DNA of 32,000 nt, taken from Polynucleobacter sp. Tro8-14-1 (GTDB lineage: Bacteria; Pseudomonadota; Gammaproteobacteria; Burkholderiales; Burkholderiaceae). Below, piece after piece: positions 5,238-27,389 of this stretch. Made by a program: the position numbers and the translations under genes. The notes under the pieces are model-generated. The model saw only the letters and a program-made list of their open reading frames with translations, was not told where the DNA came from and made no database searches. The stretch covers positions 139,772 to 171,771 of the forward strand of contig NZ_JACVPX010000003.1 in NCBI RefSeq assembly GCF_018881655.1, given 5' to 3'. Positions within the stretch are counted from its first letter, which is position 1; each line of letters starts with the position of its first letter.

Positions 5238-5239
5238 GA

Positions 5240-8761: not shown

Positions 8762-8812
8762 GGTGATTGTGAAAACCCTCCCCCAATTGAGGGAGGGTAT
8801 TTCTATTGAAAA

Positions 8813-10072: not shown

Positions 10073-10260
10073 GTCTCACCTCTTGAGTAAATTAATCAGT
10101 TGGGCACATATAACCACTGCCTGCATTGATTAGAGGATGTTTCATGTTGGTGCAAATTCAAATAATCACCAAAACAGAGCGCCTGCACCAAAATAAAGCG
10201 TCATCAAATTAAGAATTGCACTAAGAATAGGAATTTATGCCATTACAAAGGGGATACTAC

Positions 10261-10836
10261 AGAACGATATGAGAGAAATTGCAGTTAGAGGATTTATAAA
10301 CGAGAAATTTAATACCACCTTCGGTAAAGGCTTATTTAGAAGAGCGATGTTTAATGGCTCAGTAGAGCTAGGTAGCCCAAATCAAAAATACCTAGTGGAT
10401 TACTTTGAATATAGCAATTGGGAAAATACTGCCAAAACAGATGAGCAGATGGCAACTGTTCGAAAACTCAGCGAGGCTGGTATTGCAGGTCAAGCTGGAG
10501 TTTTAATGTCTTGGATCCAACATTACGATCCACTCACTAAGACAAAGCAAGGTGTTGGCGGATTTAGCATCTACTCCCCAGAAACCAAGGAGCTGCATGT
10601 AGAGATTGAAGATCAAGCAAACAACACCAAGGATTCCTGGACGCTAGATGTACATCTTTGTAAAAGTACTGGCGTTAATAAGCCAGTGTTTATAGCAACC
10701 AATGTGGATTTGAACTAATTGACGCTTTGAATTTGTACAAAATTCGCCTCAAAAAAGCCCTATACGCAAAGATCTATTAGCTTCGCAATAATGAGTAGCT
10801 GGAATTACTAAAAACAGCGTATAGCGCGAATTTGAG
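10261..10836 (+). repeat. 576-bp near-identical direct repeat, copy 1 (149-aa ORF cassette)
   Basis: Base-by-base comparison with 18275-18850 shows only 4 differences (10481, 10489, 10490, 10499). Confidence 0.95.
10269..10718 (+). CDS. hypothetical protein, 149 aa (copy 1)
   Basis: Intact ORF, 148/149 aa identical to 18283..18732. No family recognised. This copy lacks the AAGGAG Shine-Dalgarno sequence present before copy 2. Confidence 0.6.
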   Translation: MREIAVRGFINEKFNTTFGKGLFRRAMFNGSVELGSPNQKYLVDYFEYSNWENTAKTDEQMATVRKLSEAGIAGQAGVLMSWIQHYDPLTKTKQGVGGFSIYSPETKELHVEIEDQANNTKDSWTLDVHLCKSTGVNKPVFIATNVDLN

Positions 10837-10907
10837 CTACTAGCAGTAATTCGTGGGATTTTCGCCACGATCCGCACTAAATACAAGCATTGATTCGTCA
10901 ATAAAAA

Positions 10908-10977
10908 CGATTAAGAAAATATACATTTTCTTAATCGAATTATTTTTGTTTTACTAAGTCATTGATTCTTGGAAGAT
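10908..10977 (+). promoter_or_regulatory. conserved palindrome plus 23-bp box upstream of short recombinase 1
   Basis: Perfect 13-bp-arm palindrome CGATTAAGAAAAT-ATAC-ATTTTCTTAATCG (10908-10937), followed by TAAGTCATTGATTCTTGGAAGAT (10955-10977). Both elements recur upstream of recombinase 2. Confidence 0.55.
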
Positions 10978-11074
10978 CTTTTGACTGCAACCCGAACTTG
11001 AGCCTCGGTTGTCCTTTTGGAAATAAGAAAACACACTCTATATGTAATTTTATTTATCAAAGGAAAACCCATAA

Positions 11075-11641
11075 ATGGCACAAGCAAAAACCCTTACCCA
11101 AGCAGAGCTCGATCAAATACTGCGTTATGTCTCCACTAAGAAATATCCGCAGCGTGACAGAGCTATCATTCTCACCAGTTTTTGGTCGGGACTTCGCGTT
11201 GCAGAAATTGCATCGCTTAAGATGGGCGATGTTCTCAATATTGATGGCAGTATCAAAAATGAAATCCGTTTGTCTGCAGCTCAAACGAAAGGCGGTCAAC
11301 CGAGAACCGTATTTCTTCCTAAGAAACTACAAGACGAATTATTGGCCTATGTCGGCACTAGACATGCCAAGATGCCAGAGATCCCTTTTTTCCATACAGC
11401 AAACAGACTGGGATTTTCTGCCAACGGCTTATGCGTATGGTTTTATTGGAACTACAAACACTCTGGCATTTCTGGGGCAACGAGCCATTCAGGCAGAAGA
11501 ACCTTTATTACGAATTTAGCCAATAAAGGTATTTCAGTAAGAGTTTTGGCTAGTTTGGCAGGCCATAAATCCATTGCCGTTACCCAAAAATACATTGACG
11601 TAAATGACGATATGAAACGCAATGCAGTAGAGCTCATTTAA
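11075..11641 (+). CDS. short (catalytic-domain-only) tyrosine recombinase, copy 1
   Basis: 188 aa with tyrosine-recombinase catalytic residues in order: R (GLRVAE), K (QTKGG), HxxR (HSGRR), H..Y (GHKSIAVTQKY). There is no N-terminal core-binding domain. Confidence 0.85.
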   Translation: MAQAKTLTQAELDQILRYVSTKKYPQRDRAIILTSFWSGLRVAEIASLKMGDVLNIDGSIKNEIRLSAAQTKGGQPRTVFLPKKLQDELLAYVGTRHAKMPEIPFFHTANRLGFSANGLCVWFYWNYKHSGISGATSHSGRRTFITNLANKGISVRVLASLAGHKSIAVTQKYIDVNDDMKRNAVELI

Positions 11642-11665
11642 GTTTGTCGGTTTAACCGACAAACT
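11641..11665. repeat. island palindrome copy a (core GTCGGTTTAACCGAC 11646-11660)
   Basis: Perfect 12-bp arms AGTTTGTCGGTT-T-AACCGACAAACT, overlapping the stop codon of recombinase 1. Confidence 0.9.
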
Positions 11666-11758
11666 AGTGTCTCTTTAAGTGACGCTGGTAATGTCAAATC
11701 ACCACAAATCAAGCACTTTTCAGCCCAAGCGTTACTTTAAGTAACGGTGTGAAACTGC

Positions 11759-12349
11759 TTATTGGCTGCTGAGCTTATCTAGAATGAGTTGCGCTAGCGC
11801 CTTCTCGTCACCAAAAAAGGCTAACTCCATTGCTTGATACATTTGGGACTGGTTTAGATCGGAATAATTGAGCCTAAACCCAGCCTCGCTAGCTAACTGA
11901 GCAATAAACACTCGCTGCACCCGTCCATTGCCATCCCGAAATGGATGCAAGACATTAATCTCAGAAAGATAGTGGGCTAACTTCTGTGCAACTTGCTTGA
12001 TATCTTGATTTTGGAATAAATGCTCTTTAGCTAAATTACTGAATAAAGTTTTAGCGGCTGAATCAATCATGCGGATATTTGCAAAACGGCTATTTTCACG
12101 GCTTATATCTACAGTCCGAATCTTTCCAGCCCAATCATAGACATCTTGAAAAAGAGCATAGTGAATTGCTTGTAAATGCGCTAAATCAAAATTACCTTGA
12201 ATTGGCTCTAAATCTAAAGCCACTAAACGCGAAGCAGTCATATCAGACTCAAACGCCTCAAGCTCATTTTGATCCCTAAAGCCCAATTTGTTTTGCAATA
12301 CCGGAGAACCCGGATAGCAATAGACACTATCCGCGTCGTAGCGCGACAT
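11759..12349 (-). CDS. Fic-domain toxin (class I FicT-like AMP-transferase)
   Basis: Carries the Fic motif HPFRDGNGRVQR, matching HxFx(D/E)GNGRxxR. I place the start at MSRYDAD (12349) rather than the track start at 12412, which would run deep into the antitoxin ORF. Confidence 0.85.
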   Translation of the reverse strand: MSRYDADSVYCYPGSPVLQNKLGFRDQNELEAFESDMTASRLVALDLEPIQGNFDLAHLQAIHYALFQDVYDWAGKIRTVDISRENSRFANIRMIDSAAKTLFSNLAKEHLFQNQDIKQVAQKLAHYLSEINVLHPFRDGNGRVQRVFIAQLASEAGFRLNYSDLNQSQMYQAMELAFFGDEKALAQLILDKLSSQ

Positions 12350-12518
12350 AGCGTTCTTTAGTCTCTGCAATGATTTGATCGATTGTTTTTGATCCACCAA
12401 TAAAGGCATCAAAATCTTTCATCAACTCATTGCTAGGCTTCATACCCTCTACCCGCAAAGAACCCAAGGCATTGTCAACAATGTCTTTTCGGTTTAAGGT
12501 AGTTTGATTATTTTTCAT
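12327..12518 (-). CDS. VbhA/FicA-like antitoxin
   Basis: Small ORF directly upstream of fic, overlapping it by 23 nt. It contains the inhibitory motif (S/T)xxxE(G/N) as SLRVEG. The start may instead be at 12581. Confidence 0.75.
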   Translation of the reverse strand: MKNNQTTLNRKDIVDNALGSLRVEGMKPSNELMKDFDAFIGGSKTIDQIIAETKERYVALRRG

Positions 12519-12616
12519 AAGGGCTGTTTTATCTATATTACGGTATTTTAAGGGGTGCTTCCAGAAAATTAAACCCTTCATTAAGACCTGCCAGCAAATA
12601 GGGCGTAGGTTGTAGC

Positions 12617-12632
12617 GTCGGGTAAAACCGAC
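12617..12632. repeat. island palindrome copy b (GTCGGGTAAAACCGAC)
   Basis: Lies 27 nt downstream of the integrase 1 stop. Extended form is TGTAGCGTCGG...CCGACACC. Confidence 0.9.
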
Positions 12633-12659
12633 ACCAAATGGTCATCCCCTCACCCATCT

Positions 12660-13895
12660 CTACCCCGCCAATCTCTCCGCACTGAGCATTGGGGTTAGTT
12701 TGCTGTAATGACGCTCAATCATCCCTACGCTGGCTCCCATTTGCTTTGCTAGCGTATGAATATCAACTCCTTCTTCTAATCTAAATGTGGCATAGGTATG
12801 GCGAAGGCTATACAAGGTCCTGTTTTTACCAGCAGCATACTTAAACAAGCCTGATTCAACCATGAGTCGCTCAAACACGCTATCTAGACTATGGGGTGCA
12901 TCACCCGCAGGAAATACGAATACCTTACGATCCAACTTAGCTTCAATCACAGCATCGAGGTTCTTATAAGGCAAAGCCTGCCAAGTAATTAGTCGCTCTA
13001 AGGCCTCAATCACAAAATGTCTTGCAATCAGATACCTAGGCCCAGTCTTACCTGACACCCAGATCCGTAAATAGCGTTTTTCACCAATCCAGTGCCACTG
13101 CAATGATTTCCAGCGGATTGGCATGCTTTCGGTTCCCTGCCGTATCCCTGTACCTAGCAAGAACTCTACATAGACTCGGCAAAGTCTACGCATATGATTA
13201 CTGCGTTGATTGCGGCCAAAACGCTCCCAGTCCCGCATGTATTCCAATAAGTATTCGATCTCTTGGTGGCTAAAGGCTGGCCTAACCTGCGCAGCACCAC
13301 CGGTTATTTCTAATAAGGGGATATTGCGGTGTTGTGAAATAAGCCCTTGTGCTCTAGCCCGCTCAAGCACCCGCTTATAAAGACCAGCATGACGCCTTTG
13401 AGTATAGGTCTTGGGATTCTTGCCCATCTTAGATATGCGCCACGCTACATAGTCATCCACTAGCTCTTGAGTAATGTCATTGATCTGGTAGTTACCAAAG
13501 AATGGGATCAAGTACTTGGTGTAGATGTGTATGTAATCAACATGAGTGCGCTTATTGGGATTGGCTTGGACTACTCGGGCAGCCATAGCCAACTCTTGCG
13601 TGGCTAGTTGACGAAAGGTACGGGTCTTAATGGCTAGATCGCTTGCTAGCTTGACCTTGACTGTTTCATAGATAGCAATGGCTTGGGTTGTGGCTTCGGC
13701 CACCTGATCTAATCCTGTACTAGCGGAATGCCAGGCGCCAGTTGATAACTTAAAGCGGCATTGCCACTGGTGACTCGTAGGCCTCTTATAGAGGGTGATG
13801 GCACCATCAAGGAGTTTGATGGGCTCATCATCAGTGATAACGGTAGAAAATAAGAGCGATAAATTATTCATTACAAGCGTCTTGTTACGCGACAC
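12660..13895 (-). CDS. tyrosine integrase (island integrase), copy 1
   Basis: 411 aa with R (LGTGIRQGTE), HxxR region (LYSLRHTYAT) and catalytic Y (MIERHYSK). Start is GTG at 13895 or ATG at 13871. Confidence 0.9.
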   Translation of the reverse strand: MSRNKTLVMNNLSLLFSTVITDDEPIKLLDGAITLYKRPTSHQWQCRFKLSTGAWHSASTGLDQVAEATTQAIAIYETVKVKLASDLAIKTRTFRQLATQELAMAARVVQANPNKRTHVDYIHIYTKYLIPFFGNYQINDITQELVDDYVAWRISKMGKNPKTYTQRRHAGLYKRVLERARAQGLISQHRNIPLLEITGGAAQVRPAFSHQEIEYLLEYMRDWERFGRNQRSNHMRRLCRVYVEFLLGTGIRQGTESMPIRWKSLQWHWIGEKRYLRIWVSGKTGPRYLIARHFVIEALERLITWQALPYKNLDAVIEAKLDRKVFVFPAGDAPHSLDSVFERLMVESGLFKYAAGKNRTLYSLRHTYATFRLEEGVDIHTLAKQMGASVGMIERHYSKLTPMLSAERLAG

Positions 13896-13944
13896 TTGCT
13901 AGCTTAATTTCAGATTAGGGTTTGGGCGACCTGAATTATTTAGA

Positions 13945-13959
13945 GTCGGTTAAACCGAC
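13945..13959. repeat. island palindrome copy c (GTCGGTTAAACCGAC)
   Basis: Lies 50 nt upstream of the integrase 1 start and is followed by ACTACAGCG. Confidence 0.9.
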
Positions 13960-14062
13960 ACTACAGCGTCAGGGCCGCGATGGACTGTTGTTAATCACAA
14001 AGCAGCTATCACCCTACTTGCTAATGGCTAGCTCAAGTCGACCCATAGCAGACTATCGAGAC

Positions 14063-14087
14063 AACAAAAAACCCGCCTAAGCGGGTT
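14063..14087 (-). terminator. Rho-independent terminator of the outer-membrane protein gene
   Basis: The minus strand reads AACCCGC-TTAG-GCGGGTT followed by TTTTTGTT, 27 nt after the stop codon. Confidence 0.8.
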
Positions 14088-14113
14088 GATTGTTTAACAG
14101 CAGGTGGTTTGTA

Positions 14114-15493
14114 TTAGAAACCAACTGTATATGTTGCCATTACAGTAGTACTTGCTGTAGCTTGATACGCTTCTTGTCTGTAAATACCAGTTACACCTAA
14201 ACGCTGATTCTTCTCAACATCGTAAGATGCGCCAAGCATTGCTGTTGGACGGGTTTTTACAGGATTAGGGTTGAAGTTCACTGGAGTTAAACCAGTTAAG
14301 CCAGTTGCATTGTATGAACCATTAGCAGTGTTAGTGTCAGTTTCTACACCAGCACTAGCAAACAACGTGGTTTGTGGAATGCCTTTGTAGCTTGCGCCTA
14401 CGCCAGCTAATGCTGTTGTGGCATTGGTGTTGAGTGCTGAGTAGGTTAATGGCGTTGTTACAGAAGTAGAAGTTGCTTCTGTGTAACCGCCCATATTGTT
14501 CTGTGTATAACGAATACCAACATATGGTGAAACAATAACTTGGTCAGCAACACCAAAACCATACTTAGCAGTCACTTGTGCGCCTTGACTGTTCAATGTG
14601 GAGCCACCAGAACCTGCTTCGGATGCGGTAGCACCAGTGCCAACTACTGAACGATTCATCGTAGTGTTCTTTTGACCATAAGCAATAGTTGCTTTAACTT
14701 CGGTACCTGTGCCATCTAAATTTTCATTCCAAGCAGCAAATAAACCAAGTAATGGTGTGTTGTTGCCCAAGTTCACAGTAGAGCCAGCATTGTTAACCGA
14801 TAAGTTCTGGTCAGCATAAGCACCAACACGAACATTTGCCATTGCACGATAAGCGGCAATCAGTAATGCACTGGTGTTGTTCAAGCCATTAGCGGCAGAC
14901 ACGGCAGTATTGCGACCACCCGCTGATACGCAAATATCATTCTCACCAAAAACATTACAGTCATAAGAGAAGCTATTGGCTAAGACTGAGTTTTGTAATG
15001 TGTAAGTGCCTTGCAATGCTTGGACGGTGTTTTGTACGGAGACTTGGGTATTGGCTACAGATGGCCCAACTGGAAGAGGTACATAGCTAGAAATGTAAGC
15101 ATAATAGGCGTTCTGAGAACTGCCCGGCCCAGGTATCGCGTTAGTACTTCCGTTCACCCAAAAAGTAACGGTGCCGTTGCCTGTTGAGGAGGTCAGAAAT
15201 AAAACGCTTGGGAGGGTGGTGCTTGCTGTGCCATTCCAAGTTCCCAGTCTATATTGAACTTGTTGCGCAAATTGGGTTGCAAGCGATGGCTGGCCGTACC
15301 AAGGTTGGGTCGTTAATGTGTAGGCGGGGTTTGCAAGGCTGGTGGAGAGGGGCTGTAGAGCCGTCTTACCAACCGTATAGTTAATACCACCAACAGTGAC
15401 GTCAACCGTTTGCGCTTGAATATTTACTGCAAATACACTTCCAACAACTAATGCTGAAGTGATGGCGATATTTTTAATATTAAGTAATTTCAT
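14114..15493 (-). CDS. outer-membrane beta-barrel protein, autotransporter-like, short Ser/Thr/Asn/Gly-rich passenger
   Basis: 459 aa with a signal peptide (..AVNIQAQT). The C-terminal half has alternating beta-strand character and ends in ..TYTVGF (terminal Phe). Confidence 0.65.
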   Translation of the reverse strand: MKLLNIKNIAITSALVVGSVFAVNIQAQTVDVTVGGINYTVGKTALQPLSTSLANPAYTLTTQPWYGQPSLATQFAQQVQYRLGTWNGTASTTLPSVLFLTSSTGNGTVTFWVNGSTNAIPGPGSSQNAYYAYISSYVPLPVGPSVANTQVSVQNTVQALQGTYTLQNSVLANSFSYDCNVFGENDICVSAGGRNTAVSAANGLNNTSALLIAAYRAMANVRVGAYADQNLSVNNAGSTVNLGNNTPLLGLFAAWNENLDGTGTEVKATIAYGQKNTTMNRSVVGTGATASEAGSGGSTLNSQGAQVTAKYGFGVADQVIVSPYVGIRYTQNNMGGYTEATSTSVTTPLTYSALNTNATTALAGVGASYKGIPQTTLFASAGVETDTNTANGSYNATGLTGLTPVNFNPNPVKTRPTAMLGASYDVEKNQRLGVTGIYRQEAYQATASTTVMATYTVGF

Positions 15494-15747
15494 AATTCTT
15501 TACAGGTGGGTTATGTAAATCAGCTCTAGAGCTAATTTTTAGCAACCCGTATTTTACCTGCTCACCAAGTAGGTGCATAAGGTTTCATAAGCAATTACCT
15601 CGAATACAACGCTTTCATGGAGTTAAATGAGTAAAGTCGGCTTTTGGCCGTTCTCTGCCACCCAGGCACCGCCAATTACCCTGTTTTTAGCATCCACAAG
15701 CCACCGTATAAGAGCCACCTGACCGTCACTTAACAGGACACCGCACC

Positions 15748-15763
15748 GTCGGGTTAAACCGAC
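15748..15763. repeat. island palindrome copy d (GTCGGGTTAAACCGAC)
   Basis: Lies inside arm A. The homologous position in arm B (about 27097-27125) is decayed. Confidence 0.85.
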
Positions 15764-15950
15764 ACCACAAGCTCAGCCCCTAAATTTCATCAAAATTACC
15801 CAGTCGTAGGGTCGCACATAGCCCTAAGGATCGCCTACGCTAGACTCAAGGCCTCTCTAACGTCCAAAAGCCCGAGGCATTATCCACCCCACAATCAAGC
15901 CAATTAACCAGCCTGAAACAAGCCTAGAATGACAATAAATGGTAGATAAG

Positions 15951-15995
15951 TGGCCTGCCCAGCACGATTCGAACGTGCGACCTACGCCTTAGAAG
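15951..15995 (-). repeat. tRNA-Arg(TCT) 3' fragment (att-type direct repeat)
   Basis: 45 nt identical to 27313-27357, spanning from the CCA end through the T-arm, variable loop, 3' anticodon stem strand and anticodon loop. Identity stops at the 5' edge of the anticodon loop. Confidence 0.92.
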
Positions 15996-16051
15996 CTTTA
16001 AAAATGAGCTAAAACAATAGCAGAAACAATGACTTAAGCCTTAATAGATCA

Positions 16052-16113
16052 GGTGTGGCATACACACCGAGATCTGTGGAATCGTGTGGAACTGACTATG
16101 TGGTGTGTGGCAT
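16052..16113 (+). repeat. cluster of GTGTGG(C/A)A direct repeats at the distal end of GI-B
   Basis: Copies are GTGTGGCA (16053), TGTGGAA (16075), GTGTGGAA (16084) and TGTGGTGTGTGGCA (16098). GGTGTG-GCATA-CACACC also forms a small inverted repeat. Confidence 0.7.
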
Positions 16114-16126
16114 CCGCAGGCTGGGG

Positions 16127-16141
16127 GTCGGTTTAACCGAC
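16127..16141. repeat. island palindrome copy e (GTCGGTTTAACCGAC)
   Basis: Lies just inside the distal end of GI-B and is followed by ACTAAA. Confidence 0.9.
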
Positions 16142-16343
16142 ACTAAATCAGGCGAACCCACAGCAAGCCTTGGCAAACCATTTTTACTATGCCTCTCGTC
16201 CCCACGAACAGGGAAATTTATAAAGCACAAAGATCGGCAAAACCACTGCATTTTGGCGTGATTTTGCACATTAGCTATTTTGATGGGGCTTAGCGTAAAT
16301 CAGGTGGGGGATGCAATCTCGAGCGGCGCAAAAAACTACGCGG

Positions 16344-16688
16344 CTAGATATTTGCACGAGCAGCTGAAATCTGCTGTTGGGCTCGTTTAATCTTTTGTCG
16401 ATTACGCTCTGCCTTTAATGCCTTACTAGCAGTGTCTTTCTGATTTTGTAAGCTAGCCACCCTAGCCTGCTCGGGTGTTTGCGGCGGCTTAGCTTTAATT
16501 GAAGAAATAACCTCATCAATCATTTGATGCCCCCTGCTTTCATGGGTGACGAGTGATGGTTGACTAGCTAGGCTATCCATCCCAAATTGATATTGCAAAA
16601 TTAATCTAGCGTGAATTGGATTTGTGGCAAAAACAGCCGTATTTACTAACTGACCCTTGATCCTTACATAGGCTTGATATTTATTCAT
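16344..16688 (-). CDS. hypothetical protein, 114 aa, basic Gln/Lys/Arg-rich C-terminal helix
   Basis: ORF only. No Shine-Dalgarno sequence is visible and no family is recognised. Confidence 0.45.
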   Translation of the reverse strand: MNKYQAYVRIKGQLVNTAVFATNPIHARLILQYQFGMDSLASQPSLVTHESRGHQMIDEVISSIKAKPPQTPEQARVASLQNQKDTASKALKAERNRQKIKRAQQQISAARANI

Positions 16689-16727
16689 GCAAGTATTTAG
16701 CCAGTCTTATTTTGACTGACTAAAACT

Positions 16728-16748
16728 AAAGGCGCCTAATGCGCCTTT
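16728..16748. terminator. GC-rich hairpin between the toxin-antitoxin operon and the 114-aa ORF
   Basis: AAAGGCGC-CTAAT-GCGCCTTT. On the minus strand it is followed by AGTTTTAG, 28 nt after the DUF5615 stop. Confidence 0.5.
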
Positions 16749-16775
16749 AGAGTGAAATGGGTATCAGTAATTGAG

Positions 16776-17126
16776 CTACTCATGCGTAATCAAACCATCA
16801 CTAGTAATCTCTATAAAACGATGGTCCTCAAATGCTTTCGCAACAGCAGATAAGTTCGCTTGCAACAGATTCTCTAAATTGCGATTGGATATATTGCCAG
16901 TAGAAATTAACAGTAAAGCAGGTTCGCCGTTTAACAAAAAAGCCTGTACAAAGTCATCGTCTTTGGTGACTACAACTCGAGCTTCTTTAATAGCGCAAGC
17001 AATGACATCTTTATCTGGAGTTGCATTTTTGAGAGGTAGATCAGAGGTATGAATAGCATCATGTCCTTGAGCCTCCAACCAACCAACAAATCGCTTTGGC
17101 AGTTGGGCGTCTACTAAAAACTTCAT
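16776..17126 (-). CDS. DUF5615-family PIN-like putative toxin
   Basis: 116 aa starting MKFLVDAQLPKRFVGWLEAQGHDAIH, as I remember for DUF5615. A 4-nt overlap couples it to the upstream DUF433 gene. Confidence 0.7.
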   Translation of the reverse strand: MKFLVDAQLPKRFVGWLEAQGHDAIHTSDLPLKNATPDKDVIACAIKEARVVVTKDDDFVQAFLLNGEPALLLISTGNISNRNLENLLQANLSAVAKAFEDHRFIEITSDGLITHE

Positions 17127-17347
17127 GCCACCAAACGCTCAAATCGTTTAACATGACTTAATCTTGCAGCATAGGCAAGAGACGCCAAAATATCTTCTTT
17201 GTTAAGGTCTGGATAGTCAGCCAAAATCTCTTCGGTACTCATGCCGCTAGCCAGCCACTCTAAAACATTTTCTACGGGGTAACGCAAGCCGCGAATACAG
17301 GGCTTGCCATGGCAAATAACCGGATCAACAGTGATTAAATTAGCCAT
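17123..17347 (-). CDS. DUF433-family putative antitoxin
   Basis: 74 aa from ATG 17347, preceded by AAAGGAG. The DUF433-like sequence is CHGKPCIRGLRYPVENVLEWLASGMSTEEILADYPDL. Confidence 0.72.
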   Translation of the reverse strand: MANLITVDPVICHGKPCIRGLRYPVENVLEWLASGMSTEEILADYPDLNKEDILASLAYAARLSHVKRFERLVA

Positions 17348-17429
17348 TTGAATCTCCTTTCGCATCATAATTTGGCTTGTTAAAGCATGGGTAGATTTTA
17401 TACTGCTAGACCAAAAATTAGCATCTTTT

Positions 17430-17459
17430 CTTTAGAGCAATACTGCTATTGCTCTAAAG
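17430..17459. repeat. 13-bp-arm perfect palindrome
   Basis: CTTTAGAGCAATA-CTGC-TATTGCTCTAAAG, between the 148-aa ORF and the toxin-antitoxin operon. No U-tract follows on either strand. Confidence 0.6.
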
Positions 17460-17464
17460 ACCCC

Positions 17465-17911
17465 TTATAGCTGCCTCTTAAAGCCACTGCCAAGACTAGA
17501 GCTCGCTAACTCAATCTGGGGATCTAAATCCCCTGCTTCCACAGCAACCTTAACTGTTTCTAGCGCCTTAATTAAGTCCTCGGCACTATCAACTTGAATA
17601 CTGGGCTTGCCTTTGGCCAATTCAATTGTGCAAGCTCCATATCTAATGGAAACACAGACCTTCCCTTCTTCAGTCTGAAACCACCACGGCTTAATACGTT
17701 TTGGAACTTCTACTTGCTTACGAATCCCTGTCTCCTTATCTTTAATGCTGCGAAACTTCATTAGTACAAAAGGGGTTCCCGACATCTGCCCTTTAGCCAA
17801 CTGGATCTGCTCCCATAATCGACTTGAAAGTTTATTCCTTCGAATCACAATCGCTGGTTGATGAACCGGCTTCTTGAGAGCCACTAGTTTTAATGCGGTC
17901 AATGCGCTCAT
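17465..17911 (-). CDS. hypothetical protein, 148 aa
   Basis: ORF with a strong Shine-Dalgarno sequence (AGGAGGGAAT-ATG) at the internal Met (17911). No family recognised. Confidence 0.6.
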   Translation of the reverse strand: MSALTALKLVALKKPVHQPAIVIRRNKLSSRLWEQIQLAKGQMSGTPFVLMKFRSIKDKETGIRKQVEVPKRIKPWWFQTEEGKVCVSIRYGACTIELAKGKPSIQVDSAEDLIKALETVKVAVEAGDLDPQIELASSSLGSGFKRQL

Positions 17912-18274
17912 ATTCCCTCCTATAAATGAAAGAGTCATTTCAATTTATTTTCGAAATATTGGATTGGACAACCTCTTTTTTATTTTGGCTAATTTTGAGC
18001 CAGAAATTAATGGGTTTTCTTAACAAAAGCTAAATACTTTTGCGAGTTGCTGTGTTTCAAAGTACGGTCGCAAATAGATAAAGAAGTTACTGGTAGTGAG
18101 TTACTAGTTACTCGAGTGGCAAATGAGTAGCTCTGACTAGCAACACGACTTAGTGACTATCTCTTTGAGATCTGCAACTGAACTTAAAGCAACATCTTTT
18201 TGGATCTACTCCTCTAGCAACCAAGCTACGAAAGCAACAGCTCGCAACGAGAACTCAATCAATTTTAAAAAAGG

Positions 18275-18850
18275 AGAACGATATGAGAGAAATTGCAGTT
18301 AGAGGATTTATAAACGAGAAATTTAATACCACCTTCGGTAAAGGCTTATTTAGAAGAGCGATGTTTAATGGCTCAGTAGAGCTAGGTAGCCCAAATCAAA
18401 AATACCTAGTGGATTACTTTGAATATAGCAATTGGGAAAATACTGCCAAAACAGATGAGCAGATGGCAACTGTTCGAAAACTCAGCGAGGCTGGCATTGC
18501 AGAACAAGCTGGTGTTTTAATGTCTTGGATCCAACATTACGATCCACTCACTAAGACAAAGCAAGGTGTTGGCGGATTTAGCATCTACTCCCCAGAAACC
18601 AAGGAGCTGCATGTAGAGATTGAAGATCAAGCAAACAACACCAAGGATTCCTGGACGCTAGATGTACATCTTTGTAAAAGTACTGGCGTTAATAAGCCAG
18701 TGTTTATAGCAACCAATGTGGATTTGAACTAATTGACGCTTTGAATTTGTACAAAATTCGCCTCAAAAAAGCCCTATACGCAAAGATCTATTAGCTTCGC
18801 AATAATGAGTAGCTGGAATTACTAAAAACAGCGTATAGCGCGAATTTGAG
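18275..18850 (+). repeat. 576-bp near-identical direct repeat, copy 2
   Basis: See copy 1. The offset between copies is 8014 bp. Confidence 0.95.
18283..18732 (+). CDS. hypothetical protein, 149 aa (copy 2)
   Basis: Preceded by AAGGAG 6 nt before the ATG. It differs from copy 1 by one residue (E versus G). Confidence 0.7.
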   Translation: MREIAVRGFINEKFNTTFGKGLFRRAMFNGSVELGSPNQKYLVDYFEYSNWENTAKTDEQMATVRKLSEAGIAEQAGVLMSWIQHYDPLTKTKQGVGGFSIYSPETKELHVEIEDQANNTKDSWTLDVHLCKSTGVNKPVFIATNVDLN

Positions 18851-18942
18851 GTGTTACTCGAGGATCGCTGGTTTAAGTCCGTTTAGCTGTTGTCTAAATT
18901 CCACGAAAAGAAGCGATTTTTTATAAATACTACATAAAGAAC

Positions 18943-19001
18943 AGGTTAAGAAAATTGTACTTTTCTTAACCTGCCTTGTAAGTCATTGATTCTTGGAAGA
19001 T
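18943..19001 (+). promoter_or_regulatory. conserved palindrome plus 23-bp box upstream of short recombinase 2
   Basis: AGGTTAAGAAAA-TTGTAC-TTTTCTTAACCT (18943-18972), then TAAGTCATTGATTCTTGGAAGAT (18979-19001), which is identical to the box at 10955-10977. Confidence 0.55.
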
Positions 19002-19096
19002 ATTTTTTGATGGCCAAATAAACAAATTTCGGTCGACCTTTTAAGACTTAGAAAACATACTAAATACACACTTTTTATTTATCTAAGGAGAATTAA

Positions 19097-19663
19097 ATGG
19101 CACAAGCAAAAACACTATCTCAAACAGAACTAGATCTAGTTCTTAATTACGTCAGCACCAAAAAATATGCCTTGCGCGATAGAGCGTTAATACTTACAAG
19201 CTTTCTTGGTGGCCTTCGCGTTGCCGAAATTGCCAGCTTGAAAATGGGCGATGTATTAAATCTCGATGGCACTATTAAAAATGAAATCCGCCTATCGGCC
19301 TCACAAACCAAGGGTAAGCACCCTAGGACTGTATTCGTCTCACAGCGTTTACAGGCGGAATTGGCCAACTACTTAACAACAAGATACATAAAAGAAGCTG
19401 ATATTCCCCTCTTTCATACAGATCATCGTTTGAGATTTAGTGCTAATGGCTTATGTGTGTGGTTCTATCAGCTCTATAAGAATGTGGGTATTAGCGGTGG
19501 CAGCAGCCATTCAGGAAGAAAATTCTTTATTACTACCCTCGCTAATAAAGGGATTGGTGTTCGAATCTTAGCCAGTCTAGCTGGTCACAGATCAATTGCA
19601 GTGACTCAGAGATATATCGATGTCAATGATGAGCAAAAGAGGAATGCTGTCGAGCTAATTTAA
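19097..19663 (+). CDS. short (catalytic-domain-only) tyrosine recombinase, copy 2
   Basis: 188 aa, roughly three-quarters identical to copy 1 by eye, with the same catalytic residues. Preceded by AAGGAG. Confidence 0.85.
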   Translation: MAQAKTLSQTELDLVLNYVSTKKYALRDRALILTSFLGGLRVAEIASLKMGDVLNLDGTIKNEIRLSASQTKGKHPRTVFVSQRLQAELANYLTTRYIKEADIPLFHTDHRLRFSANGLCVWFYQLYKNVGISGGSSHSGRKFFITTLANKGIGVRILASLAGHRSIAVTQRYIDVNDEQKRNAVELI

Positions 19664-19669
19664 ATGGCA

Positions 19670-19685
19670 GTCGGGTAAAACCGAC
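19670..19685. repeat. island palindrome copy f (GTCGGGTAAAACCGAC)
   Basis: Begins 6 nt after the recombinase 2 stop and is followed by TCTAAC. Confidence 0.9.
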
Positions 19686-19686
19686 T

Positions 19687-20502
19687 CTAACAGGCATGCC
19701 TAGTCAATTGCGATACTCGATCTTTTGCGCAGTCAAACTCGTGATTACCTAATGAAAATAATCGGCTAGCAAAATTTTCATCTTCAAAATTAAAGCGGGT
19801 TTGAAAGCTTTTACCTAATTCTTGTTGTGGGAATATACCAAGTGCAGCCTGCTCTGAGATATTTAAAGCGCTTTCCTTGTGCCTCATGACCATTAAGGTC
19901 ATATGGCGCCGCATGTGATCATCCCCACTTTTGTGCCTTGCTGCCAATGGGTCTAACCTCCCGATAAAGCGATCTACTAGCATTGCCATTGCCCCAGCCC
20001 TCCAGAGCTCAGTATCGGGATTTAAAGCCATGGTGTAGATTAGGAGCAAATCTTTCCACATATTCTTTAATTTAGCGCCTTTAAGTACTTGACTATGAAT
20101 TTGCTTGATTTGAGTATTTGGCCAAATTTGCGATAAAGCATTAACCAGTTGGGATATTGATGGGGGGTCTTGATCGCTACAAAGCTTTAGCAATACGTCG
20201 TCATCACAAACAAAAAACCTGTCTTTGCCTTTAATAATTTCAATTACTGGAGGAGACGAATCCATCAGCTGCTTCTTATGACCTTCAAACCAAGTCGTAA
20301 ATGGACAATCTAAGACACAACCGTACTTGGAGTAACAATCTAAGATCTTACGATTATCAAGACTCATTTTCTTAGTTAATCGTTTTGGTCTCACATACTT
20401 GCTAGCGGCGGTATAGCTAGGACTTATACGTAAAAAGTTAAAGAAAAGCCTCGCCATCTCCTGATGACAGTCTTGCTGCTCCGCACAAAGTTTTCCGCCC
20501 AT
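19687..20502 (-). CDS. hypothetical protein, 271 aa
   Basis: Long ORF divergent from the next two genes, with GGAG 8 nt upstream of the ATG. No family recognised. Confidence 0.6.
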   Translation of the reverse strand: MGGKLCAEQQDCHQEMARLFFNFLRISPSYTAASKYVRPKRLTKKMSLDNRKILDCYSKYGCVLDCPFTTWFEGHKKQLMDSSPPVIEIIKGKDRFFVCDDDVLLKLCSDQDPPSISQLVNALSQIWPNTQIKQIHSQVLKGAKLKNMWKDLLLIYTMALNPDTELWRAGAMAMLVDRFIGRLDPLAARHKSGDDHMRRHMTLMVMRHKESALNISEQAALGIFPQQELGKSFQTRFNFEDENFASRLFSLGNHEFDCAKDRVSQLTRHAC

Positions 20503-20639
20503 GCGGATATCTCCAGCCTAAATTTACCTACTTTTTTTAATTCTAAATTTTGTATGTATTCACTACAGGGATGGTGAAGTGAAATCAGATTGTGAATGGA
20601 ATTCACCATCACATTTTTAACAATTTCAGGAGAAAATCC

Positions 20640-21464
20640 ATGAGTGAAACTACTGTAGTCGAATCAGGCGTTAGCGCCCCTAACGCTGAAAAAACGAATG
20701 CCAACCCTTTTGCAGTGGGAATTGGCAATTTATTAACAGGCAGCAATCCAGAAAAAGCCATCGGCGACTCTATTGATCGCCTAGTTGAATATCGCAAAAA
20801 CTGGGAAAGTAATGAGCTTTCTAGTGCAAATGATGTCTTGTATGGAATCTTGCGGCATTGTTACGCCTTAAACAACACAATGCAAGGCTCAGACAGTATT
20901 GCCAAAAGCCTTAAAAAAGGTCTAGCGAACTACATCAAGACCCATGAATACAAGTTCAGCGACAGCTCGCCACTAATCACTAAGATCGTGAAATGTGTAT
21001 TTGGTGTTGATCGTCGTAGGGTTAATGCCTATAGCACAGCTATGAAGGCAGCAATGGCTGAGAGAGTGAGCGTACTTGATCTACCAAAATATTTCCGTGA
21101 AAAAGGTGGCGTTGAGGAAGTTAGACGCTCTACTACTAGCAAAGGCAAATCGATTGCTCAGAAGGTGGAATTAGGACGTACTGTACTCAATGGCGAAATA
21201 CTAGCGAAGGTACAAAGTGATTCTCTTAATGCCTCATTCTCAAATGAGCAGCTAGAGGAAGGTGTTGTGTTGCTGGCAACACGAGAAGATGATGGCAGTT
21301 TTGCAATCCGCAGAGTCATCCAAAGTGGAACAGCAGTTAAATCAGCGTTAGCAGCTTGCTCCAGTGTCGGCGCTGAAAAAGAAAAAGCACAGAAACTAGC
21401 TGATGAGGCTAAAGCAATTGAAGATGAGCGTTTAGCCGCCCAATCTAAATTAAAAGCTGCTTGA
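20640..21464 (+). CDS. hypothetical protein, 274 aa, Ala/Lys/Glu-rich C-terminal tail
   Basis: The start at 20640 follows AGGAG. The C-terminus EKEKAQKLADEAKAIEDERLAAQSKLKAA looks like a coiled coil. No family recognised. Confidence 0.65.
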   Translation: MSETTVVESGVSAPNAEKTNANPFAVGIGNLLTGSNPEKAIGDSIDRLVEYRKNWESNELSSANDVLYGILRHCYALNNTMQGSDSIAKSLKKGLANYIKTHEYKFSDSSPLITKIVKCVFGVDRRRVNAYSTAMKAAMAERVSVLDLPKYFREKGGVEEVRRSTTSKGKSIAQKVELGRTVLNGEILAKVQSDSLNASFSNEQLEEGVVLLATREDDGSFAIRRVIQSGTAVKSALAACSSVGAEKEKAQKLADEAKAIEDERLAAQSKLKAA

Positions 21465-21480
21465 GCTTGTTGTTCTACAT

Positions 21481-21523
21481 ATGATTGCTGGCATTTACCT
21501 TCCAAGATAAATCCAGCAATCAT
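21481..21523 (+). terminator. 11-bp-stem hairpin with T-rich tail between the 274-aa gene and the AAA+ gene
   Basis: ATGATTGCTGG-(21 nt)-CCAGCAATCAT followed by TTCATTATTTT. The loop is large, so it may be an attenuator or processing site rather than a strong terminator. Confidence 0.4.
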
Positions 21524-21546
21524 TTCATTATTTTAAGGAGATTGCG

Positions 21547-22296
21547 ATGCATAACCCTAGACCACCCTCTATTGTCATACAAGCACCCGGATGTTTAGAT
21601 GATTTTGCTTTACAACCTAATAGTCGATTTAAGCTTGAGTCCATACTTGATTTAAGTCTGCATATTCCAGCTAACGGTATTTGTGGGATTGTTCTATATG
21701 GTTTATACGGAACTGGTAAAACTACTCTGGCCAACTTATTGCCAGGCTTAATTGAAACGGCCAAAGTCAATCCTGCTTGTGCAGCATTGAATGCTGGATC
21801 TATCATTGATACAGAAGATCCTAATTCAGATTATTTTGCCTGCGCACAAGGTCAGAACGGCGCTCAATTAACTCAATCGATTCAAAATAGAACCACTTAT
21901 ATGTCATTTAATAGTAGTGGTCTACATTACATCATCATGGATGAGGTTGATGTCTTAACCCCAGCAGCGCAAGCAGGCTTCAAATCAATCATGAATCGTA
22001 AAGACGTCATATTCATCATGACTAGCAATAACTTAGATCAAATTGATAAAGGCCTTCAGAATCGATCAATTTTGATTGATATGAATGTTCCACCAATTAA
22101 TGATTGGCGACCAATTTTGCGTCGTGTTTATGAAAATGCAGGTCTACCAGCACCGCCTGATGATGTATTAGATCAAGTGGTTCAGGCTGGTAGAGGATCA
22201 GCTCGAAGCATTTTTTCAGATATCGTGATGAGCGTTAACCAAGAGGTGAGAGAAAAGCATGAGACTCACTTAATTACCCTTAAAGCATGCAGTTAA
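21547..22296 (+). CDS. clamp-loader/RFC-like AAA+ ATPase, 249 aa
   Basis: Walker A GLYGTGKTT, Walker B IIMDEVD, sensor-1 MTSNN, SRC-like QNRS and sensor-2-like GRGSARS. A Shine-Dalgarno AAGGAG lies upstream. Confidence 0.75.
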   Translation: MHNPRPPSIVIQAPGCLDDFALQPNSRFKLESILDLSLHIPANGICGIVLYGLYGTGKTTLANLLPGLIETAKVNPACAALNAGSIIDTEDPNSDYFACAQGQNGAQLTQSIQNRTTYMSFNSSGLHYIIMDEVDVLTPAAQAGFKSIMNRKDVIFIMTSNNLDQIDKGLQNRSILIDMNVPPINDWRPILRRVYENAGLPAPPDDVLDQVVQAGRGSARSIFSDIVMSVNQEVREKHETHLITLKACS

Positions 22297-22308
22297 GTGA
22301 TATGTAGC

Positions 22309-22324
22309 GTCGGGTAAAACCGAC
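22309..22324. repeat. island palindrome copy g (GTCGGGTAAAACCGAC)
   Basis: The extended near-palindrome TGTAGCGTCGGGTAAAACCGACACTACA (22303-22330) lies between the AAA+ stop and the integrase 2 stop. Confidence 0.9.
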
Positions 22325-22325
22325 A

Positions 22326-23567
22326 CTACATGATTGCCCCTGCCAATCTTTCCGCACTCATCATTGGTGTTAATTTTGAATAATGACGCTCAATCATCCC
22401 TACGCTGGTTCCCATTTGCTTTGCTAGCGTATGAATATCAACTCCTTCTTCTAATCTAAATGTGGCATAGGTATGGCGAAGGCTATACAAGGTCCTGTTT
22501 TTACCAGCAGCATACTTAAACAAGCCTGATTCAACCATGAGTCGCTCAAACACGCTATCTAGACTATGGGGTGCATCACCCGCAGGAAATACGAATACCT
22601 TACGATCCAACTTGGCTTCAATGACAGCATCGAGATTGGCATAAGGCAAAGCTTGCCACTTGATTAGTCGCTCTAAACTATCAATAACAAAGTGACGGGC
22701 AATCAAATATCTCGGCCCCGTCTTGCCCGATACCCAGACTCTTAAGTACCGCTTTTCACCTATCCAATGCCACTGTAGGCTACGCCAGCGAATTGGCATG
22801 CTCTCTGTTCCCTGCCGTATTCCCGTTCCTAGCAAAAACTCTACATAGACCCGGCAAAGTCTGCGCATATGATTACTGCGTTGATTGCGGCCAAAACGCT
22901 CCCAGTCCCGCATGTATTCCAATAAGTATTCGATCTCTTGGTGGCTAAAGGCTGGCCTAACCTGCGCAGCACCACCGGTTATTTCTAATAAGGGGATATT
23001 GCGGTGTTGTGTAATAAGCCCTTGTGATCTAGCTCGTTCAATCACTCGCTTATAAAGACCAGCATGACGCCTTTGGGTATAGGTCTTGGGATTCTTGCCC
23101 ATCCGAGATATGCGCCACGCTACATAGTCATCCACTAGCTCTTGGGTAATGTCATTGACCTGGTAGCCACCAAAGAATGGGATCAAGTACTTGGTGTAGA
23201 TGTGAATGTAGTCCGCATGGGTGCGTTTATTGGGATTGGCCTGGACTACTCGGGCAGCTGCAGCTAGTTCTTGCGTGGCTAATTGCCGAAAAGTCTTGGT
23301 CTTAATGGCTAGATCACTGGCTAGCTTGACCTTGACTGTTTCATAGATAGCAATGGCTTGGGTTGTGGCTTCGGCCACCTGATCTAAGCCAGTACTTGCG
23401 GAATGCCAAGCACCAGTAGATAACTTAAAACGGCATTGCCATTGGTGACTCGTGGGTCTTTTATAGAGGGTGATGGCACCATCAAGGAGTTTGATTGGCT
23501 CTTCAGCGATAGTAGAAGCAAACAACAGGGATATATTATTCATTACAAGCGTCTCGTTACATGACAC
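22326..23567 (-). CDS. tyrosine integrase (island integrase), copy 2
   Basis: 413 aa, roughly 93-95 % identical to copy 1 by eye, with the same catalytic motifs. Confidence 0.9.
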   Translation of the reverse strand: MSCNETLVMNNISLLFASTIAEEPIKLLDGAITLYKRPTSHQWQCRFKLSTGAWHSASTGLDQVAEATTQAIAIYETVKVKLASDLAIKTKTFRQLATQELAAAARVVQANPNKRTHADYIHIYTKYLIPFFGGYQVNDITQELVDDYVAWRISRMGKNPKTYTQRRHAGLYKRVIERARSQGLITQHRNIPLLEITGGAAQVRPAFSHQEIEYLLEYMRDWERFGRNQRSNHMRRLCRVYVEFLLGTGIRQGTESMPIRWRSLQWHWIGEKRYLRVWVSGKTGPRYLIARHFVIDSLERLIKWQALPYANLDAVIEAKLDRKVFVFPAGDAPHSLDSVFERLMVESGLFKYAAGKNRTLYSLRHTYATFRLEEGVDIHTLAKQMGTSVGMIERHYSKLTPMMSAERLAGAIM

Positions 23568-23615
23568 TTGTAGCTTAATTTCAGATTTACGTTTGGGCGA
23601 CCTGAATTATTTACT

Positions 23616-23630
23616 GTCGGTTAAACCGAC
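23616..23630. repeat. island palindrome copy h (GTCGGTTAAACCGAC)
   Basis: Lies 49 nt upstream of the integrase 2 start and is followed by ACTACAGCG. Confidence 0.9.
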
Positions 23631-23766
23631 ACTACAGCGACAGGGCCGCGATGGACTGTTGTTAATCACAAAGCAGACCTTAGCCTAAATTGAGCATGGC
23701 AGTCAGAGTTTGACCCAAGGGAGACCTTGGAGGACAAGTCCAGTAACTCATCCCCCTAGTGTGTTA

Positions 23767-24267: not shown

Positions 24268-24308
24268 TTTAGTACTCCTTGAGTTAACTGCTTGATATGA
24301 ACTAACAC

Positions 24309-26489: not shown

Positions 26490-26520
26490 AGCGGAAACCT
26501 AAATGATGAAGACATAGAAC

Positions 26521-26551
26521 ATTTAACACCCTATAGTAACTATAGAGTCAA
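26521..26551 (-). promoter_or_regulatory. MerR-type promoter/operator of the ATPase gene
   Basis: The minus strand reads TTGACT-(19 nt)-TTAAAT. The over-long spacer contains the palindrome CTATAGT-A-ACTATAG (plus strand about 26531-26545). It is divergent from the MerR-family gene. Confidence 0.7.

Positions 26552-27012: not shown

Positions 27013-27389
<377 letters not shown>

Follow-up and report, generated by a model that had tools for sequence, protein, structure and literature searches.

Background

Small genomic islands are the main route by which Polynucleobacter and other streamlined bacteria of lakes diversify. The described systems closest to the one considered here form a heterogeneous group that includes the integron (IntI with its attC and attI sites), Xer/dif recombination with the integrative mobile elements exploiting Xer (IMEX) and the pdif modules of Acinetobacter plasmids, the FimB/FimE invertases, the Rci shufflon and the tandem islands at tRNA genes. 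The recognition sequences of such systems and of other palindromic elements vary widely in form: attC sites are 57-141 nt long with R''/R' boxes RYYYAAC ... GTTRRRY, lambda COC', dif and lox provide the reference geometry for tyrosine-recombinase core sites, lambdoid operator sets have conserved arms around a variable centre, and repetitive extragenic palindromes (REPs) have GTAG-like heads. To this range we compare a 32,000-nt stretch of Polynucleobacter sp. Tro8-14-1 (GCF_018881655.1, NZ_JACVPX010000003.1 positions 139,772-171,771, forward strand; hereafter the window), in which two small genomic islands (~6 and ~11 kb) lie in tandem at tRNA-Arg(TCT) and carry eight copies of a short palindrome, GTCGG-N5/6-CCGAC. 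From their sequence and placement we suggest that these palindromes serve in cis as sites for the tyrosine-recombinase machinery of the islands and are probably where crossover occurs, a reading to which we give nearly, though not quite, even credence.

Results

Eight palindromes of one orientation

An exact search of the window for GTCGG-N{5,6}-CCGAC returned eight matches, all reported on the + strand (sites a to h, Table 1), and no match was obtained in 100 dinucleotide-preserving shuffles. Copies with a single mismatch in the ten stem positions are absent from the window, while shuffles give ~2.1 matches at <=1 mismatch; the palindrome family in the window is all-or-none and perfectly conserved. 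Neither exact nor one-mismatch copies occur in 1-10072 or 27400-32000, and the density is eight copies in 12 kb of island versus none in 14.7 kb of flanking chromosome. In 10000-27600 an E-value scan with Rfam matched nothing beyond the two tRNAs, and a known RNA family was rejected as the identity of the sites.

The copies fall into two length classes. The 15-mers GTCGGTT[T/A]AACCGAC at a, c, e and h are perfect palindromes, the a/e core being the reverse complement of the c/h core, and the 16-mers at b, d, f and g have the form GTCGGGT[A/T]AAACCGAC. Palindromy extends to 25-28 bp at a (AGTTTGTCGG-TTTAA-CCGACAAACT) and at g (TGTAGCGTCGG-GTAAAA-CCGACACTACA). Orientation can be read from the flanks, since the base following CCGAC is A in seven of the eight copies (AC in six) and the left flank is not its mirror image; among related loci this +1 base is A in 39 of 40 distinct contexts.

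These results agree with an initial annotation of the same DNA, which had listed eight copies at these coordinates, all pointing the same way, with none in the urease/urt part or after the tRNAs, one soon after each short-recombinase stop and one on either side of each large integrase. The decayed copy that it had placed near 27097-27125 is real and lies at the homologous arm position (Table 1); the weak relics that it had suspected at 10853-10882 and 18867-18881 are not motif copies. Its integrase repeat does start at the motif, 6 nt left of b and g, and ends 46 nt past c and h rather than at the core (12611-14005 and 22303-23676, 89% identity).

Association with recombinase genes

Each island has the gene order p149, rec188, middle module, ~403-aa integrase (opposite strand), cargo and attachment (att) arm. 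Rec188, a short tyrosine recombinase, aligns with residues ~100-290 of XerA/XerC/XerD and, by our reading of the alignment, retains the conserved positions typical of an active site of this enzyme family, namely Arg, His-x-x-Arg, His and Tyr. Sites a and f directly follow the two rec188 genes, and the integrase genes are bracketed by b/c (411 aa) and g/h (413 aa).

This association extends to related loci (numbered L001 onwards), in which we considered all palindromes of a wider GTC class described below. Of 83 distinct 3' flanks of rec188, 25 have a GTC palindrome within 40 nt past the stop, compared with ~1 expected from a local density of 0.30/kb (~25-fold); upstream of rec188 there is no enrichment (4 of 77 flanks, ~3.5 expected). 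The palindrome after rec188 persists with homologues that are 47% (L148) and 44% identical (L288, a contig from a viral collection). Integrase genes are flanked by such palindromes at the 3' end in 13 of 32 cases and at the 5' end, at positions -62 to -79, in 15 of 36, and the integrases concerned include unrelated families (e.g. L245, 25% identity).

Restriction to the island family

To place the motif among genomes, one 19-nt variant of the pattern, GTCGGGTHAAACCGACACY, was scanned in 185,579 species genomes; the fully degenerate pattern was not counted genome-wide. The scan returned 74 matching stretches, where ~26 were expected by chance and ~11 look like chance, with 1-4 matching 8-kb stretches per genome. 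Polynucleobacter accounts for 34 of the stretches and other freshwater Betaproteobacteria for ~28. About 60 stand in island contexts that recur, in most of which the 8-kb stretch itself has no backbone gene: directly 3' of an integrase gene; 160-190 nt away from the tRNA-Arg(TCT) 3' end, within a conserved arm; or, in Comamonadaceae, near 42%-identical integrases beside tRNA-Leu or tRNA-Pro. Ten further loci from other assemblies that carry the exact rec188 protein (L001-L010) have the motif at the places equivalent to those of the window and at additional ones, always on the same strand, and none in their chromosomal flanks. Neither the window's island genes nor the loci L001-L010, as judged by their precomputed Pfam calls, showed a RAYT/HUH domain. 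The eight palindromes are sites of an island family and not host repeats.

Several individual matches were noted in passing. Four loose-motif matches within 700 nt of L086 (IMG/VR 3300020201_000148, 10769-11493) belong to a tandem repeat, GTCGGCGTAACCGAC, that is most likely coding and unrelated to the islands. A metagenome-assembled genome labelled Candidatus Berkelbacteria has a typical Polynucleobacter-type d site with the conserved arm (L151:3068), and its assignment to a bacterium of the candidate phyla radiation is probably a binning error. At L164:3431, L168:1674 and L177 (reverse strand) the 3' fragment of a different tRNA (...GGTTCAAGTCCTCTTGGGCCCACCA) lies 15 nt left of a d-type core with a right arm leading to tRNA-Arg, an arrangement that looks like a junction of elements with different att sites. 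Polynucleobacter brandtiae has two d-like sites 78 nt apart (L181:374 and L181:452), a short-unit tandem duplication near tRNA-Arg.

Junctions at or beside the sites

Clustering the flanks of 149 GTCGG-type instances gave 53 clusters on the left and 58 on the right, which occur in 73 combinations. At least three unrelated left flanks adjoin the integrase-side flank of b, and homology breaks there at the core; for the arm-side flank of e the unrelated partners on the right number at least eight, and the break falls within 7 nt. Pairwise homology ends <=10 nt from a site in 11.8% of cases versus 0.9% for random positions, values from which redundancy and intergenic bias were not removed. Polynucleobacter sp. 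AP-Kaivos-20-H2 (L155) has two precise palindrome-to-palindrome deletions: in the joint e-left/c-right the entire island interior is gone, and the joint d-left/e'-right is missing ~360 nt, comprising arm, tRNA fragment and arm, that are still present in L192. A search for 'empty versus occupied' pairs yielded a single case among 360 palindromes.

An identity step was also found at b, where the block from rec188 to b is 99.6-100% identical in loci of different species and the adjoining integrase module 81-88%. Compared with at least three integrase alleles, the step falls between 12633 and 12666-12675; the intervening 33 nt are invariant and allow no finer placement. Module order differs between lineages as well, with the p149-DUF6641 and integrase modules on opposite sides and inverted, and a palindrome is present at each changed junction examined. 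The islands also leave remnants that have no integrase.

As a separate observation, comparison of window 10900-12665 with L001-L010, L147, L150 and L153, which represent different Polynucleobacter species, gave 99.6-100% DNA identity for the rec188-Fic/VbhA-b block and 93-97% for p149, which points to a very recent spread of this block across diverged islands.

A wider class of sites in relatives

A metagenome scan with the rec188 alignment provided 80 loci (64-98% identity), most of which have no GTCGG...CCGAC and instead carry other perfect palindromes of the same design. Their common frame is T-GTC-NN(N)-centre-(N)NN-GAC-A with symmetric R-S-T / A-S-Y flanks, and GTC palindromes number 164 observed versus 48 in shuffles. 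The stem GTCGTG-N5-CACGAC is present at 4-7 copies per locus in nine loci; further stems are AAGC-GTCGCG-TWA-CGCGAC-GCTT, GTCAA-N5-TTGAC, GTCGT(G)...ACGAC, GTCCTG...CAGGAC and GTCTAG...CTAGAC. A locus has several copies of one stem, which is uniform within an island and different between lineages, and stem types form clades on the rec188 tree. Neither rec188 nor the integrase is supported as the determinant of stem type: both correlate with it via shared ancestry, and there are counter-examples for each.

Palindromy is preserved through compensatory stem changes, and 70% of the palindromes lie outside open reading frames (ORFs) of >=90 aa, compared with 20% of the sequence. The asymmetric flank ACYAM is found only on the right in 22 cases and only on the left in four. 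In the GTCGG lineage the centres are position-specific, being GTAAAA at 15 of 15 b/g sites, TTAAA at 14 of 16 c/h sites and GTYAAA at 23 of 24 d sites, and an extended right arm, AC-N6-GTCAGGG, is common to c, d and the Comamonadaceae sites. In the GTCGTG lineage a palindrome with perfect stems and a variable centre (TCAAA, TCGGA, TCTGA) lies inside the annotated 5' end of a p290-like ORF (L240:9033, L237:4713, L259:4371, L260:4455, L243:3425, L242:2152); either the true start is downstream or the coding sequence tolerates the site.

Setting and neighbouring genes

The islands have the hallmarks of tRNA-integrating elements, namely a tyrosine integrase and a repeat of the tRNA-Arg 3' 45 nt, and relatives occupy the same tRNA. 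Genes for tRNA-Arg(TCT) and tRNA-Pro lie at 27313-27502, and the att arm around the island-island junction (15644-15995) is 77% identical to 27013-27357. No att copy was found at the left end of island 1, beside urtA; window 10073-10268 has neither a left att copy nor an e-type site nor a DUF6641 gene, and homology between the two islands begins 8 nt before the p149 start codon, where the region upstream of urtA adjoins. A deletion has removed the left part of island 1.

Table 1. Coordinates of the sites, genes and island features in the window
Feature	Position	Strand	Description
Site a	11646..11660	+	GTCGGTTTAACCGAC; extended perfect palindrome AGTTTGTCGGTTTAACCGACAAACT 11641-11665; 4 nt past rec188-1 stop, between convergent genes
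Site b	12617..12632	+	GTCGGGTAAAACCGAC; 27 nt beyond integrase-1 stop; left flank TGTAGC common to g
Site c	13945..14005	+	Core 13945-13959 GTCGGTTAAACCGAC and conserved right arm ACTACAGCGTCAGGG... to 14005; 49 nt upstream of integrase-1 ORF start
Site d	15748..15763	+	GTCGGGTTAAACCGAC; within conserved att arm 15644-15950, ~190 nt from tRNA-Arg fragment
Site e	16127..16141	+	GTCGGTTTAACCGAC; outer end of other att arm (15996-16126); inter-island conservation ends ~7 nt to right
Site f	19670..19685	+	GTCGGGTAAAACCGAC; starts 6 nt past rec188-2 stop; 16-mer identical to g
Site g	22309..22324	+	GTCGGGTAAAACCGAC; in extended palindrome TGTAGCGTCGG-GTAAAA-CCGACACTACA 22303-22330; between AAA gene stop and integrase-2 stop
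Site h	23616..23676	+	Core 23616-23630 GTCGGTTAAACCGAC and conserved right arm; upstream of integrase-2
Decayed d-type copy	27115..27130	+	GTCCTGTCTAACTGAC; att arm 27013-27312, adjoining intact tRNA-Arg
rec188-1	11075..11641	+	188-aa tyrosine recombinase, catalytic domain only
rec188-2	19097..19663	+	74% identical to rec188-1
Integrase 1	12660..13895	-	411-aa ORF; called 403 aa in relatives
Integrase 2	22326..23567	-	413-aa ORF
p149	10269..10718 and 18283-18732	+	Conserved partner gene upstream of rec188
DUF6641 backbone gene, island 2	17465..17938	-	
Backbone module	19687..22296		p271 (-), p290 (+), 249-aa AAA+ clamp-loader-like protein (+)
Fic/VbhA	11759-12581		Island 1, same slot as p271/p290/AAA+ module of island 2
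Island 1	~10261-15995		Left end lost
Island 2	15996-27312		
Island-island junction	15901..15995	-	95 nt identical to 27263-27357
att core repeat	15951-15995		Copy of tRNA-Arg(TCT) 3' 45 nt
tRNA-Arg(TCT)	27313..27389	-	Integration target of island array

Both integrases match PF00589 below Pfam's own cut-off, and their relatives have Polynucleobacter as the source name; looking up the contig by the 411-aa integrase ORF and by UrtA returned no match. Rec188 belongs to a large family (>3,600 protein clusters in freshwater metagenomes), with only four distant relatives among 2.9 million viral contigs, and a phage or satellite origin of the islands was rejected on that ground. The p149 family comprises 233 clusters with source names including Polynucleobacter and Methylophilaceae. 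Its AlphaFold model (predicted local distance difference test score, pLDDT, 89) is a beta-barrel with no significant match in the PDB, and p149 is unsupported as a detached core-binding domain of rec188 in a split recombinase.

The initial annotation had listed the three genes at 19687-22296 as an unknown module. The p271/p290/AAA+ module is conserved in many island lineages and is backbone of the island family, not cargo. These genes are kept together with rec188 across L240, L237, L259, L243, L232, L245, L283 and L178, the AAA+ protein has weak matches to RFC/DnaX clamp loaders, and the module may serve island replication or mobilisation. Cargo 2, between the integrase and the att arm, is an outer-membrane protein in island 1 versus metal resistance in island 2. 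The latter includes a 205-aa Met/Gly/Gln-rich protein with MMGGHMMGW-type repeats (window 23767-24384) adjoining a P-type ATPase and a MerR regulator, which may be a periplasmic metal-binding component of the resistance cargo.

Two further palindromic features near rec188 were observed. A 12-bp palindrome, AAGGTCGACCTT (GGTCGACC in the window, ~19035-19046), is conserved ~65 nt upstream of the rec188 start (L182, L229, L231, L270, L132); in some relatives a full GTCGGGTAAACCGAC site precedes it, where the window has unrelated or decayed sequence. An AT-rich long hairpin follows p149, CGATTAAGAAAA...TTTTCTTAATCG in island 1 (10908-10937) and CAGGTTAAGAAAA...TTTTCTTAACCTG in island 2 (18940-18975); it shows compensatory stem changes between the islands and is terminator-like and distinct from the GTC palindromes.

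Discussion

Candidate crossover sites of an island recombinase

The geometry of the sites, with 8-11-bp inverted arms around a 5-6-bp centre, fits by analogy that of tyrosine-recombinase core sites, where inverted arms for protein binding enclose an overlap of 6-8 bp and both strands are exchanged within that overlap. An island-encoded tyrosine recombinase would bind the palindrome arms, and strand exchange would take place in or beside the centre. Rec188 would be the most likely enzyme because it is what islands with unrelated integrases have in common and no other position has a site as consistently as its stop; the ~403-aa integrase may take part. Such exchange would allow the deletion, replacement and re-ordering of backbone and cargo modules, either within an island or between islands that are co-resident or in tandem. 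Recombination between like sites only would account for the uniform stems, which would form compatibility groups. Different centres at different positions would then leave the sites of an island mostly incompatible, so that self-deletion would be restrained and two islands would tend to exchange at matching positions, and tandem arrays like this one would supply such paired positions. In its fullest form this would be an undescribed modular system, consisting of a catalytic-domain-only recombinase and 'GTC-box' palindromes with the stem as compatibility group and heterospecific centres, and serving operon-sized module exchange between co-resident islands; we regard the full system as possible, if doubtful.

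A number of observations speak against crossover at these sites. There is no direct trace of circles, and sites of 15 and 16 nt coexist. The hybrid sites come from one genome only, and microhomology deletion over 9-14 nt could give them. Stem type is strictly tied to neither recombinase: L240 and L245 share a stem although their integrases are only 26% identical, and L253 and L256 differ in stem although their rec188 proteins are 92.6% identical. The rec188 clade L208-L217 has no uniform perfect palindrome and only heterogeneous GYGTC...GACRC hairpins, and in the close relative L132 the backbone is present while neither rec188 nor the integrase is followed by a site (a and b absent). Breaks at the edge of a site are also expected if the site is simply where the constraint on a module ends. 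The limits of cargo 2 are not at the cores but 46 nt right of c and ~100 nt left of d, and this cargo may have been swapped by homologous recombination in the conserved flanks.

The predictions of the initial annotation on module exchange divide along the same lines. Breaks of cargo at the motifs hold in so far as homology often ends at a site or within a few nucleotides of it, and fail at the ends of cargo 2. The proposed swapping of motif-delimited modules is matched by the two site-to-site deletions in L155, which are also motif-to-motif deletion junctions of the kind that it had suggested looking for, and is not matched by Fic/VbhA, which is always seen in the same rec188/integrase context and was rejected as a roaming cassette. 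Restriction of the motif to the island family, as opposed to a chromosome-wide REP, agrees with the 74 stretches found for the 19-nt variant, and the likeness to integrons is limited to their logic, as had been proposed.

Alternative roles

Of the other roles, the one that survives best is that of architectural or accessory binding sites without strand exchange, recognized by the integrase N-terminal domain or by an accessory factor, with d and e as arm-type sites, c autoregulatory and the others at module ends. Sites d and e are indeed best seen as attP-arm elements, the tRNA-Arg core being ~190 and ~130 nt away from them, distances that are usual for arm sites of attP and count against crossover as well; d is embedded within the conserved arm and not at its edge, c-type sites recur at -62 to -79 of the integrase gene in the 15 of 36 flanks, and the AC-N6-GTCAGGG arm links c, d and the Comamonadaceae sites. 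However, a, f and g are 2-4 kb away from att and have convergent genes on their two sides, and the two L155 deletions are left unexplained. The same core also accompanies integrases of 42-100% identity at different tRNA genes, where arm specificity would normally diverge, and palindromes follow integrase families as unrelated as that of L245. We consider a purely architectural role unlikely.

Structural hairpins in single-stranded DNA or RNA, acting as terminators, insulators or signals like an origin of transfer (oriT) or single-strand initiation site (ssi) and recognized by shape, are improbable. Compensatory stems and copy-specific extensions (in L240, L237 and L259, for example, AGCCACT...AGTGGCT with a T-run after it) would be expected of them, as would the placement of most copies outside long ORFs. 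The folding energies of the sites as single-stranded DNA range from -4.3 to -11.5 kcal/mol, and six of eight fold better than shuffles. The orientation, fixed relative to the island, is what a strand-specific process would produce, but the flanking genes run both ways and their transcripts carry different strands. Shape recognition leaves the single stem per island and the position-specific centres unexplained, and no relaxase or HUH gene was seen among the annotated island genes. Only site a passes a loose terminator scan, which the other seven fail, and the terminator-like sites at 14070-14087 and 16726-16750 differ in having GC-rich stems and T-runs. An intrinsic terminator was accordingly rejected as the identity of these seven sites, and a terminator function is unlikely.

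Operators of an island-encoded dimeric repressor, with immunity-like specificity and half-sites that differ between lineages as in phages, are a shade less probable still. Conserved arms, a variable centre and lineage-specific stems resemble lambdoid operator sets, the AAGGTCGACCTT palindrome is conserved upstream of rec188, and one site at the 5' end of the p290 ORF is in a divergent promoter region. Three of the eight sites, however, lie between convergent stop codons, where no promoter is expected, and a promoter-like scan was negative at the sites. The lack of enrichment upstream of rec188 and the 15- versus 16-nt spacing do not suit a dimeric repressor, and no helix-turn-helix protein was recognized among the backbone genes tested against Pfam.

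It is very improbable that the palindrome is a miniature mobile element, similar to a REP or a miniature inverted-repeat transposable element (MITE), which inserts independently within islands and plays no part in the exchange of modules. Some copies, as a ~22-nt unit, are present or absent in otherwise collinear sequence (after the rec188 stop, between L240 and L237; upstream of rec188, between L182 and the window), and the heads TGTAGC / ACTACA recall by analogy the GTAG-like heads of REPs. Against this stand the very low copy number at homologous positions across islands, the lack of a RAYT or other HUH gene in the annotated loci and of visible target duplications, and position-specific centres, which disfavour a freely copying unit. 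A generic host REP or terminator spread over the chromosome, as palindromic intergenic sites in an AT-rich, streamlined genome might have suggested and as the initial annotation had considered, has next to no chance of being correct, since the tested variant reaches at most four matching 8-kb stretches per genome, in recurring island contexts, and the non-island flanks of the window and of L001-L010 have none.

Linking a short, lineage-specific site to an abundant minimal tyrosine recombinase would make the way in which cargo is loaded, swapped and left behind testable. If the palindromes are crossover sites, they could add a natural module-exchange system to integrons and Xer/pdif, an integron analogue for operon-sized modules in streamlined planktonic bacteria. 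Exchange would resemble a natural form of recombinase-mediated cassette exchange and might yield compact, orthogonal recombinase-site pairs. If they are merely binding or structural elements, they would still be a precise marker with which to find and delimit the island family in genomes and metagenomes.

Comparison with known systems

The system resembles the integron in its array of modules split by same-direction, imperfectly conserved palindromic sites with a tyrosine recombinase alongside, and in the conservation of the bases at the foot of the hairpin together with a variable inner stem. In contrast to attC, the island sites are 15-28 nt long with a GTC...GAC foot and have stems that are identical within one island. 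Their modules hold 1-6 genes on both strands with their own promoters, where the cassettes downstream of attI/Pc in integrons are for the most part single ORFs of one orientation that lack a promoter, and there is no attI-Pc platform. The recombinases themselves score far below the NCBIfam cut-offs for integron integrases (265 and 435), with 40.7 and 15.4 bits for rec188 and 20.8 bits for the 411-aa integrase.

Xer/dif, IMEX and pdif are related through the enzyme, as rec188 is nearest to the XerA/XerC/XerD catalytic domains, and through a similar arm and centre geometry, which at the extended palindrome of site g is partly like the 28-bp 11-6-11 arrangement of dif; pdif also bounds gene modules by short recombinase sites. 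However, the island sites show no similarity to the dif consensus, they are all direct whereas pdif sites alternate, and the island-encoded recombinase lacks a core-binding domain and is paired with lineage-specific stems. FimB and FimE are of comparable build (~190-200 aa, essentially a catalytic domain), and the module inversions between island lineages likewise have palindromes at their ends. The Fim switch is a single pair of 9-bp inverted repeats around a promoter, whereas the islands have 6-9 sites per element that are direct as judged by their flanks. No invertible promoter segment was seen, and no segment occurred in both orientations among near-identical loci, orientation differing only between distant lineages. 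Against the invertase models rec188 reaches 32.8 bits for PRK09870 (cut-off 221) and 24.4 bits for PRK09871 (cut-off 222), over the N-terminal 60 residues only.

The shufflon is alike in having many short sites within a few kilobases and a dedicated tyrosine recombinase gene beside the first of them, yet sfx repeats are in inverted orientation and placed within the coding segments of a single gene family, whereas the island sites are mostly intergenic (70%) and separate unrelated modules. REPs with their RAYT proteins share short palindromes with a GTAG-like head and a carrier-specific, uniform stem; they differ in occurring in tens to hundreds of copies chromosome-wide with an HUH (RAYT) gene, where the islands have few copies and no HUH gene was seen. 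The overall setting is like that of tandem tRNA islands such as the tycheposons of Prochlorococcus and additive flexible islands, which are small integrase-bearing elements at a tRNA gene of a streamlined planktonic host, with tandem arrays, partial-tRNA repeats, cargo distal to the integrase and integrase-less remnants. In contrast to tycheposons, the hallmark genes here are DUF6641, p149, rec188, p290 and AAA. The reports on which this comparison is based (bioRxiv 10.1101/2020.12.28.424599; PMC10872708) describe neither internal palindromic sites nor a second short recombinase. We found no description of these sites in the literature, where an earlier mention in work on Polynucleobacter islands is possible. 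The island system shares its logic with attC arrays and Xer/pdif and its architecture with FimB/FimE, while the defining features of each of these systems are either absent from it or only partly similar.

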